Shown here: positions 39,001-42,000 of the stretch, piece by piece
Position numbering within the stretch: the first letter of the stretch is position 1
How the letters are laid out: each line of letters opens with the position of its first letter
From: Escherichia coli
GTDB taxonomy: Bacteria; Pseudomonadota; Gammaproteobacteria; Enterobacterales; Enterobacteriaceae
Length of the DNA stretch: 64,000 nt
NCBI RefSeq assembly: GCF_965641715.1
Contig: NZ_OZ282453.1
Strand: one strand, 5' to 3'
Position numbers: made by a program

Positions 39001-42000
39001 TTGAACAGACCACAAAAAGTAGCCGCGTATCCCGCTTCCTGTGGGTGGAGGGTAAAATTTCTATGGGTTGGGTAACGACAGGAATATTTCTTTGTATTGA
39101 TGGCAAAAACAACCAGACTATCAGTCCGCAAACAACAAATGCGATGGCAGCGGTGAGATACATCACTTTAAAACTAAATCCCATTGCCAGTTCATAAGCG
39201 AGCGGTGGCCCGATAACCCAGGCAAGCGAGATCTGAGCACGTAAAAATGTACTGAACATGACCGTCTCACGGCCTGTTCTGTCGGCGTGTTCACGGGCGA
39301 GGGCGAACATTTGCGGGTTTGCGGTGGAAGCAAAACTACTCAGAAGTACGCCCGTTGAGAGGAGAATGAAGTAGTTGCGATTCCACGCAAAAAGCGTGCA
39401 GGCCAGCACTCCAAATAAGCAACATAGCAGAATCAGTAATTTACGGTCGCCTTGTTTATCGGAGTGCCTTGCCAGAAATTGACTGACCAGAATTCCCATA
39501 ATAGCGCTACCGGTGAAGAAAAAACCTACCATTATAGGACGGGCTTTCAGTTCATCTGCGAGGAATATACTTAGGGTAGGAGTCTGAAGAGCGCCCGCAA
39601 TACCCGTCAGAAAGGCGACAAGTAAAAATGCCGCGGCAGTGAGATCAAGTATTTTTGATGGAGTGGTAGCCGTTTTTTGCATTCTTCTGAATCACCGGGC
39701 GACAAAATATAACTGAGTTACAAATAAGTACCAGTCGAATGAGTATTGTATTAAGAATTTTTGAGTATCGCTGATACAACCAGAAAACAATGCTAGCGCA
39801 ATATTATAGGGCCAGCAATTGAGATTATTAGCAAAAGCATGTTAAGAATTAATCACCGAATTTATATATTAATTATAGTAAGGCAATGAGCTATTTTTGA
39901 TAGTAAAAATAAAACAAGTTGATTTGATATATTAAATGAACAAATTAATCTTGATGGCAGTCTGATTATTGGTGAGGTTTATAGGTCAGTTTTTTTGCCA
40001 GCTGTTAAAGGAATAGAACAGTCGTATAAAAAAGGGTATGCAGAAGCGTGTAAAACAACATCTTCACCTTAATGGCGATACAGTTGGCTGAGAGTCAGCA
40101 GGGGGGAAAATCACCTGTAAATAAACACGGCGCATGCTGGCGCGAATATCGCGGATGCGTTCGAGGACAGAAGAACCGACAGGCGGATTCTTCAGCCGCT
40201 CATCGTCCATCACAAAACCTTTGATCAGGTATTCCTGAAGCCGATTGAATATTGAGCAGTAGAAAATATCTGGATTGACAGTATTACAAGGGATTGGAGA
40301 ACGTCAGAAGAGGCATTTTGGCGGAAGATCACAGGAGTCGAACCTGCCCGGGACCGCTGGCGGCCCCAACTGGATTTGAAGTCCAGCCGCCTCACCGGAG
40401 ACGACGATCTTCCGCGCCTCGATTGCTACATGGAGGCGGGGCGCATTATAGCTACTTCCTTGAGTTTCTACATCCCCCAGATCAGTTTTTTCCGCCTAAT
40501 ACACGCAGCGTATTATCACGAAAGCATTATAGTTCATATAAAACCCATATTTTACAATGATATATGAGCGGAATTAACGCTACCACGATCACATAAAACA
40601 AGAATCATAAATTAATAACCAGATATCGGAATATTCGCTCTCACAGGGATGGTTTACAAAATGCGTTATCGGTCTCAGCACCCCTATAGCATCAAGGAAA
40701 AGCAGATGAAGAGTGAAGTGTTGTCCGTTAAAGAGAAAATTGGTTATGGCATGGGAGACGCCGCCAGCCACATTATTTTCGATAACGTAATGTTATATAT
40801 GATGTTCTTTTATACCGATATTTTTGGCATTCCTGCCGGATTTGTCGGAACCATGTTTTTGGTCGCTCGTGCACTGGATGCGATTTCCGATCCTTGCATG
40901 GGATTGTTGGCCGATCGAACGCGCTCTCGCTGGGGTAAATTTCGTCCGTGGGTACTGTTTGGCGCACTGCCATTCGGGATCGTCTGTGTACTGGCCTATA
41001 GCACGCCAGATCTCACTATGAACGGAAAAATGATCTATGCAGCAATTACTTACACCCTACTTACCTTACTTTATACCGTCGTCAATATCCCTTACTGCGC
41101 ATTGGGTGGTGTAATCACCAATGACCCGACTCAGCGTATCTCGCTGCAATCCTGGCGTTTTGTGCTGGCGACCGCGGGAGGCATGCTTTCTACGGTTCTG
41201 ATGATGCCATTGGTTAATTTAATTGGTGGTGATAATAAACCACTCGGTTTCCAGGGCGGTATCGCGGTCCTTTCCGTGGTGGCATTCATGATGCTGGCAT
41301 TCTGTTTCTTCACCACTAAAGAACGCGTTGAAGCACCACCTACAACGACGTCTATGCGGGAAGATTTACGTGATATCTGGCAAAACGACCAGTGGCGGAT
41401 TGTCGGTTTACTAACCATTTTCAATATCCTGGCGGTGTGCGTACGCGGTGGAGCGATGATGTATTACGTCACATGGATTCTGGGTACGCCGGAAGTGTTT
41501 GTCGCTTTTCTCACCACTTATTGCGTGGGTAACCTGATTGGTTCCGCACTGGCAAAACCGCTGACCGACTGGAAATGTAAAGTCACTATCTTCTGGTGGA
41601 CGAACGCCCTGCTGGCAGTGATTAGCCTCGCGATGTTCTTTGTTCCCATGCAGGCCAGCATCACTATGTTTGTCTTCATCTTCGTGATTGGTGTGTTGCA
41701 TCAACTGGTGACACCTATCCAGTGGGTAATGATGTCCGATACCGTCGACTACGGCGAGTGGTGCAATGGTAAACGCCTGACCGGGATCAGTTTTGCTGGC
41801 ACGCTGTTTGTGCTCAAACTGGGGTTGGCCTTCGGCGGCGCTCTTATCGGCTGGATGCTGGCTTATGGCGGATATGATGCGGCAGAAAAAGCGCAGAACA
41901 GCGCCACGATTAGCATCATTATCGCGCTATTCACGATTGTTCCGGCGATCTGTTATTTGCTGAGCGCGATTATCGCTAAACGCTACTACTCACTCACGAC

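Follow-up and report, generated by a model that had tools for sequence, protein, structure and literature searches.

The 64,000-nt stretch of Escherichia coli DNA analysed here (contig NZ_OZ282453.1; hereafter the window) contains the tRNA-Sec gene selC, and beside the 3' end of this gene a sequence-only reading had noticed a short protein-like fragment on the minus strand, which it likened to RhuM-family proteins and took for a vestige of an earlier selC-borne element, the classical insertion site being otherwise empty. The question raised by this locus is therefore what the fragment is and how it came to lie there. With a probability of roughly 0.88 it is a non-functional pseudogene, namely what is left, still in place, of a rhuM gene formerly located immediately downstream of selC.

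The fragment next to selC

The layout of the locus is given in Table 1. Past the fragment, setC is the first intact gene, followed by yicL, while yicJ and yicI lie on the other side of selC. The spacer between selC and setC (39683..40318) comprises 636 bp, for which the ORF list shows neither an integrase nor any frame above 56 aa, and a search of these 636 bp returned no Rfam family apart from tRNA-Sec. Its earlier description as about 600 bp of AT-rich non-coding DNA does not hold for the composition of the fragment itself, which has a G + C content of 51.9% as against 31.5% in 39683..40063. This AT-rich part, in which the setC promoter presumably lies, shows no homology to RhuM and gave no blastn match with any of the 80 RhuM loci considered below. 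It also contains the most diverged patch in the 5.2 kb compared with K-12 (39976-40049, 16 differences in 74 nt), including a run of differences at 39985-39989 that resembles a compensated 1-nt shift.

Table 1. Features between selC and setC, with their positions in the window and the evidence for each
Feature	Position	Strand	Evidence or remark
selC, tRNA-Sec (anticodon UCA)	40319..40413	-	ARAGORN; Rfam RF01852, 83.8 bits; 3' end faces the relic
Leader of old 'long-leader' rhuM copy	40242..40318	-	83-86% identity to L006 (E69) and L086 (CUPF09)
GCTT microhomology, deletion junction	40238..40241	-	Pairwise alignments with E69 second copy and intact rhuM
rhuM pseudogene fragment (yicT/b4653 of K-12)	40079..40240	-	tblastn, BLASTP, Pfam, PGAP
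Tail of open frame with stop codon 40064..40066	40064..40078	-	Translation; lenient local alignment only
AT-rich spacer upstream of setC	39683..40063		31.5% GC; 5.05% divergence from K-12
setC (sugar efflux transporter), 394-aa ORF	38498..39682	-	ORF list, annotations

The classical selC insertion site is unoccupied in the window, and there is no island. The relic lies directly 3' of tRNA-Sec, about 77-78 nt from the end of selC and in the same orientation, but no tyrosine integrase is found beside the tRNA gene in the window, whereas one is present in O157 TR01 and in CUPF09. Likewise, repeat searches of the window returned neither a second copy of GCCAAAATGCCTCT or CGACTCCTGTGATC, i.e. no distal selC repeat (attR), nor any other meaningful repeat, whereas such a repeat follows the intact rhuM of PMV-1, E69 and other genera. 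The view of an otherwise empty site, with no integrase, att repeat or island, thus stands.

Translation of the minus-strand frame that ends at the stop codon 40064..40066 gives exactly the peptide quoted previously. The interval formerly assigned to it, 40115-40262, is right as to its lower bound of 40115; the peptide itself, however, spans 40115..40249, and the homology to RhuM runs over 40079..40240, from the L of LQEYL to about PTV, the leading FNR not being homologous. The fragment corresponds to about residues 121-185 of the 345-aa RhuM of E. coli PMV-1 (tblastn, E = 1e-22; BLASTP, E = 1e-25; 72% identity including gaps by BLASTP) and matches the Pfam family PF13310 (Virulence_RhuM) with 49.3 bits (E = 5e-13) at a gathering score of 33.7 bits, although over profile positions 50-98 of 252 only and hence not as a whole domain. 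The protein search proposed as a check on the resemblance to RhuM accordingly returned a significant match rather than none, and PGAP gives the same rhuM label to the 100% identical sequence in E. coli D8.

What remains of the gene is, however, heavily truncated. The fragment is without a start codon, its first 120 codons being deleted at the GCTT junction described below, and it carries an in-frame 24-nt deletion (VPDYFDEM) at 40165/40166 as well as small indels near 40112, toward its 3' end; it is not an intact frame with its own start under purifying selection. By tblastn there is no RhuM homology past residue ~185, and 40064..40078 may hold the last recognisable rhuM bases (ATCGC..TTAA). 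A lenient local alignment that extended rhuM homology through the whole spacer was rejected as an over-extension, tblastn finding nothing past residue 185. The relic cannot make RhuM protein and, because only 19% of the protein (65 residues) is kept in the window, cannot supply its function; nor is it a full-length PDC-S05 protein, the scan for which was run on the intact RhuM (see below).

The existence of this relic is already known, and as a feature it is ordinary. The comparison with the selC flank of K-12 suggested in the sequence-only reading reveals the same relic there, annotated in MG1655 as the pseudogene yicT (b4653), and in D8 the PGAP label reads 'rhuM, RhuM family protein; incomplete; missing N-terminus and C-terminus', as it does in six further strains, i.e. 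all others fetched. The spacer of the window is 100% identical to that of D8 and 96.2% identical to those of K-12 and BL21. Of 5426 complete E. coli genomes, 3618 have this spacer at almost its full length, and in a further 844 the site is taken by an intact rhuM. Being a known pseudogene in two thirds of complete E. coli genomes, the relic is of little importance for the window, and a text search of the literature returned nothing relevant on yicT. What is added here is the identity of the leader, the GCTT deletion junction and the cassette architecture of the intact relatives, but no new kind of element. In nlpA, PGAP annotates a frameshift in D8 (L001 1-778) as against an intact 272-codon ORF in the window (36642-37460), and the window is therefore not simply identical to the D8 record at that point.

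Leader, deletion junction and decay

The stretch between selC and the relic opens with the att-like sequence AAATGCCTCT immediately past the CCA end of selC, and it is matched with 83-86% identity in Escherichia E69 (L006 1899-1980) and E. coli CUPF09 (L086 5027-5102), where the leader continues into ...GGCGAC-ATG and rhuM codons 1-14. In E69 the order is intact rhuM, partial selC 3' end, leader and the beginning (14 codons) of a second rhuM (MSDKDLTQSPAGEF); here 81 nt that are 86.5% identical to 40238..40318 of the window are followed by 40 nt and then by the ATG of this second rhuM. In CUPF09, the only one of the 5426 E. coli genomes to retain them, leader and ATG fragment lie on the distal side of a degraded selC island. 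Since the leader runs into ATG and rhuM in both, 40242..40318 of the window is the native leader of an old rhuM copy. In E69 and CUPF09 alike, a gene annotated as fliB (flagellin lysine-N-methylase, 405 aa, opposite strand) cuts the old rhuM after codon 14, and this fliB-like gene (L006 2023-3278, L086 5130-6455) occupies the place that setC has in K-12-type strains.

According to pairwise alignments, the leader (...TTCAATCGGCTT) is joined to about codon 119 of rhuM via GCTT at 40238..40241 (ACGCTT followed by CAGGAA). Some 395 nt are missing at the junction, of which about 40 nt belong to the leader and 354 nt to the coding sequence. This is a single deletion between two GCTT tetranucleotides, and it removed the remainder of the leader together with codons 1 to ~118. 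In K-12-type genomes among the matches listed, the match to the E69 leader ends at the same position (query nt 108), and O157 TR01 has an exact copy of the 51 nt closest to selC (40268..40318) upstream of its island integrase.

Compared with K-12, the relic has diverged by 3.7% and the AT-rich spacer by 5.05%, but setC by only 0.5% and yicJ by only 0.97%, so that the relic diverges three to seven times as much as its flanking genes; of its six substitutions, four fall on codon positions 1 or 2. An alignment of eight strains revealed an in-frame stop (K to stop) in K-12, KSC1031 and SJ2D, 1-nt frameshifts in the relics of FDAARGOS_1276 and SJ2D, and a 15-nt deletion in the leader of EC17CM2, while the 5' GCTT junction and the 24-nt deletion are common to all eight. 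These shared features suggest a single inactivation event followed by independent decay, and junction and deletion can thus serve as a marker that dates one inactivation before the K-12-type lineages diversified. The remnant is drifting neutrally and gains stops and frameshifts that differ between strains.

The present arrangement thus goes back to a rhuM gene directly downstream of selC, of whose leader 77 nt survive; a deletion of ~395 nt at the GCTT microhomology fused the leader to codon ~119, the 24-nt deletion and the small indels came later, and the sequence past about codon 185 has been lost as well. A simple model of one old copy does not predict, however, that the first 75 nt of the relic are nearly identical (95-100%) to the modern intact B2 allele whereas its 3' part is more diverged, and gene conversion or mosaicism is a possible explanation for this pattern.

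Among the rival explanations, the notion that a random open frame resembles RhuM by chance might appeal to the shortness of the fragment, with about 54 aligned residues, but it is refuted by the tblastn E value of 1e-22, by a Pfam score of 49.3 bits against a cut-off of 33.7 bits, and by 75 nt that are 95-100% identical to an intact gene at the same locus. Co-option of the fragment, either as a small protein (a 49-aa ORF with a GTG start, 40064..40213) or as a regulatory or terminator element for setC or selC, would be in line with an ORF that is open in the window, with the retention of the fragment in 3618 genomes and with a weak terminator-like hairpin at 40064..40078. Yet other strains carry in-frame stops and frameshifts, the fragment diverges 3-7 times as much as the genes on either side, promoter- and terminator-like sites are at or below the count in shuffled sequences, the fragment contains no Rfam family, and O157 strains are devoid of the region altogether; co-option is thus largely refuted and must be considered highly improbable.

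Intact rhuM genes at selC and the question of mobility

In 844 E. coli genomes (of the PMV-1 and ATCC 11775 type) an intact 345-aa rhuM starts 52 nt past selC, and setC is absent. In PMV-1, the sequence CGACTCCTGTGATC-GCCAAAATGCCTCT, which repeats the selC 3' end and the next 10 nt downstream but lacks TTCC, is located 114 nt past the rhuM stop, and beyond this repeat there is a second, more eroded and much older rhuM relic (residues 166-245, 40% identity, tblastn E = 2e-11). PMV-1 (NC_022370.1, L002 4974-5279) thus exemplifies two layers at selC in B2-type strains; its second relic has no PGAP annotation, and next to it, with setC absent, comes a 122-aa hypothetical gene. Orthology between the relic of the window and this distal relic was considered but is unsupported, as blastn similarity covers only ~30 nt after the att-like sequence.

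A scan for RhuM with one genome per species returned the 80 closest RhuM loci. Of these, 24 have a tRNA-Sec gene upstream of rhuM and on the same strand, at a distance of up to 900 nt in 16 cases, and no tRNA-Sec lies within 6 kb of the other 56; the only other tRNA gene nearby is tRNA-Leu (2/80). Genera with a selC-linked rhuM include Enterobacter, Escherichia (E. albertii), Erwinia, Serratia, Yersinia, Pantoea and Raoultella, and further Proteus, Morganella, Photorhabdus, Providencia and Hafnia. Moreover, CGACTCCTGTGATC is found +109 to +117 nt past the rhuM stop in E. coli, E69, three Serratia, Yersinia ruckeri, Hafnia and Pseudescherichia (one mismatch) and 1.6-3.8 kb away in Morganella, Providencia and Proteus, with no match on the reverse strand of any of the RhuM loci. 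Measured against the E. coli protein, RhuM identity hardly changes from E. albertii to Yersinia (83-89%), and Zhongshania and Shewanella still reach 78-80%, a pattern that fits horizontal transfer better than vertical descent. Repeats of TTCGACTCCTGTGATC, the same as here, have been described at the ends of selC islands, and so has the motif TTTGGGGGTACTTATGGGGGT, which in the present loci lies just past the rhuM stop codon (PMC6174562).

The distal selC repeats lack TTCC in E. coli (L002 5250-5279), Morganella, Providencia and Proteus and one T in Escherichia E69, Serratia and Atlantibacter (coordinates: L065 8627-8666, L071 10857-10899, L078 8881, L079 9807, L002 5250-5279, L006 1880, L019 7155, L024 7151 and L033 5833), and the 10-29 nt past their CCA match each species' own selC flank. 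Two peculiarities of the records may be mentioned: Serratia sp. DD3 has two RhuM genes with the same ~108 kb spacing on each of four contigs (L024-L027, L048-L051), which looks like one region present four times in the assembly and not like eight real copies, and in two metagenome-assembled genomes labelled 'Sphingobacterium' (L034) and 'Bacillota' (L038) an enterobacterial-type tRNA-Sec lies beside a 78% identical RhuM on short contigs, so that both are probably mis-binned enterobacterial DNA.

From this architecture we infer that intact rhuM behaves as a cassette of ~1.25 kb, devoid of an integrase, between selC and a partial selC repeat. The ancestral rhuM of the window would then have arrived on a small selC-integrating element, as judged from the relatives and not from the window, and cassettes might stack at selC, with older copies being pushed outward and decaying there. 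The earlier proposal of a vestige of a selC-borne element is upheld in this sense by the intact rhuM at selC in 844 genomes, the partial selC repeat, the 24 of 80 loci and the native leader, mobility itself being deduced from relatives. It is conceivable, though we would put it at somewhat less than even odds, that rhuM is the single cargo of a selC-specific cassette of this size without an integrase, moved in trans by resident selC-island integrases across the Enterobacterales, that the resulting arrays are layered with yicT as the oldest eroded layer, and that the TTCC-less repeat is the cassette's own att site. The order of the cassette under the same tentative scheme would be selC 3' end, leader, rhuM, terminal arm of ~110 nt and partial selC repeat. 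Layered copies of rhuM would mean repeated insertions of one and the same small cassette at selC.

Alternatively, rhuM could be an old, vertically inherited neighbour of selC in the Enterobacterales and the fragment a decayed ancestral gene, without any mobile element being involved. Adjacency of selC and rhuM in the same orientation is indeed seen in many genera, and the leader identity between the window and E69 (83-86%), being near that of the yicL/nlpA region (85.8%), fits vertical descent of that copy within Escherichia. However, RhuM identity does not follow the phylogeny (E. albertii 87%, Citrobacter 89%, Erwinia 87%, Serratia and Yersinia 83%, Zhongshania and Shewanella 78-80%), partial selC repeats at a constant distance flank the intact copies, several copies or layers of rhuM occur at a single selC, and 56 of the 80 loci have no tRNA-Sec within 6 kb. 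Purely vertical inheritance is therefore regarded as unlikely, and the remains of a rhuM gene that had come to selC on a small element are the preferred reading of the fragment.

As for the function of the intact protein, RhuM of PMV-1 matches the PADLOC model PDC-S05 over residues 1-343 (E = 3e-173), and a RhuM-like domain has been proposed as a toxin found in R-M, PrrC and DOC gene neighbourhoods (Anantharaman et al. 2013, PMC3710099). Intact RhuM is thus probably a toxin or candidate phage-defence protein. Experimental validation of PDC-S05 or of a RhuM toxin was not found, the literature retrieved listing PDC-S05 in surveys only. PHROGs contains no family for RhuM or for its 122-aa neighbour, and a PDB sequence search with RhuM gave no match. 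An AlphaFold2 model of intact RhuM based on a 31-sequence alignment was poor (mean pLDDT 57, pTM 0.40), and a Foldseek search of this poor model against the PDB had no match with E<=0.001. Should intact RhuM prove to act as a toxin in defence, the locus would offer a simple case of defence-gene turnover at a tRNA hotspot.

Comparison with known systems

The closest counterpart of the relic is yicT of K-12, with which it shares the locus, the deletion junction, the 24-nt deletion and the 636-bp selC-setC spacer (96.2% identity), and from which it differs by six substitutions and by the absence of an internal stop, the LIKGF codon for K being changed to a stop in K-12. The intact rhuM of B2 strains (PMV-1, WP_001280586.1; ATCC 11775) has the same position and orientation beside selC but codes for 345 aa and has a short leader of 52 nt; beyond the gene come a partial selC repeat and another, older relic, and in these strains a 122-aa hypothetical gene takes the place of setC. 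In O157:H7 TR01, a stretch of 51 nt separates selC from a P4-like integrase and the LEE island, whose far end abuts a 201-bp C-terminal stump of setC (L005 13022-13222). The TR01 lineage has thus lost the relic, the AT-rich spacer and most of setC, with the island in their place.

The rhuM gene of Salmonella SPI-3 is a member of the same Pfam family, to which it gave its name, and is likewise carried in DNA inserted at selC. SPI-3 differs, however, in being a multi-gene island of 17 kb, whose gene order at selC was reportedly set out by Blanc-Potard et al. in 1999, and Salmonella is not among the 80 closest loci. Among Salmonella serovars, rhuM is variably present (PMC3680342).

With the selC islands that have a P4-like integrase (LEE/SpLE4 of O157, SHI-2, EPI-I and GIselC17584/1), the rhuM loci have in common the integration site, the terminal repeat TTCGACTCCTGTGATC and the motif TTTGGGGGTACTTATGGGG ahead of the distal repeat, whereas the window is without integrase, distal repeat or cargo. 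Cis-mobilizable elements without an integrase are known as CIMEs, and it is these that the putative rhuM cassette, with its att-like repeats and no integrase, resembles.
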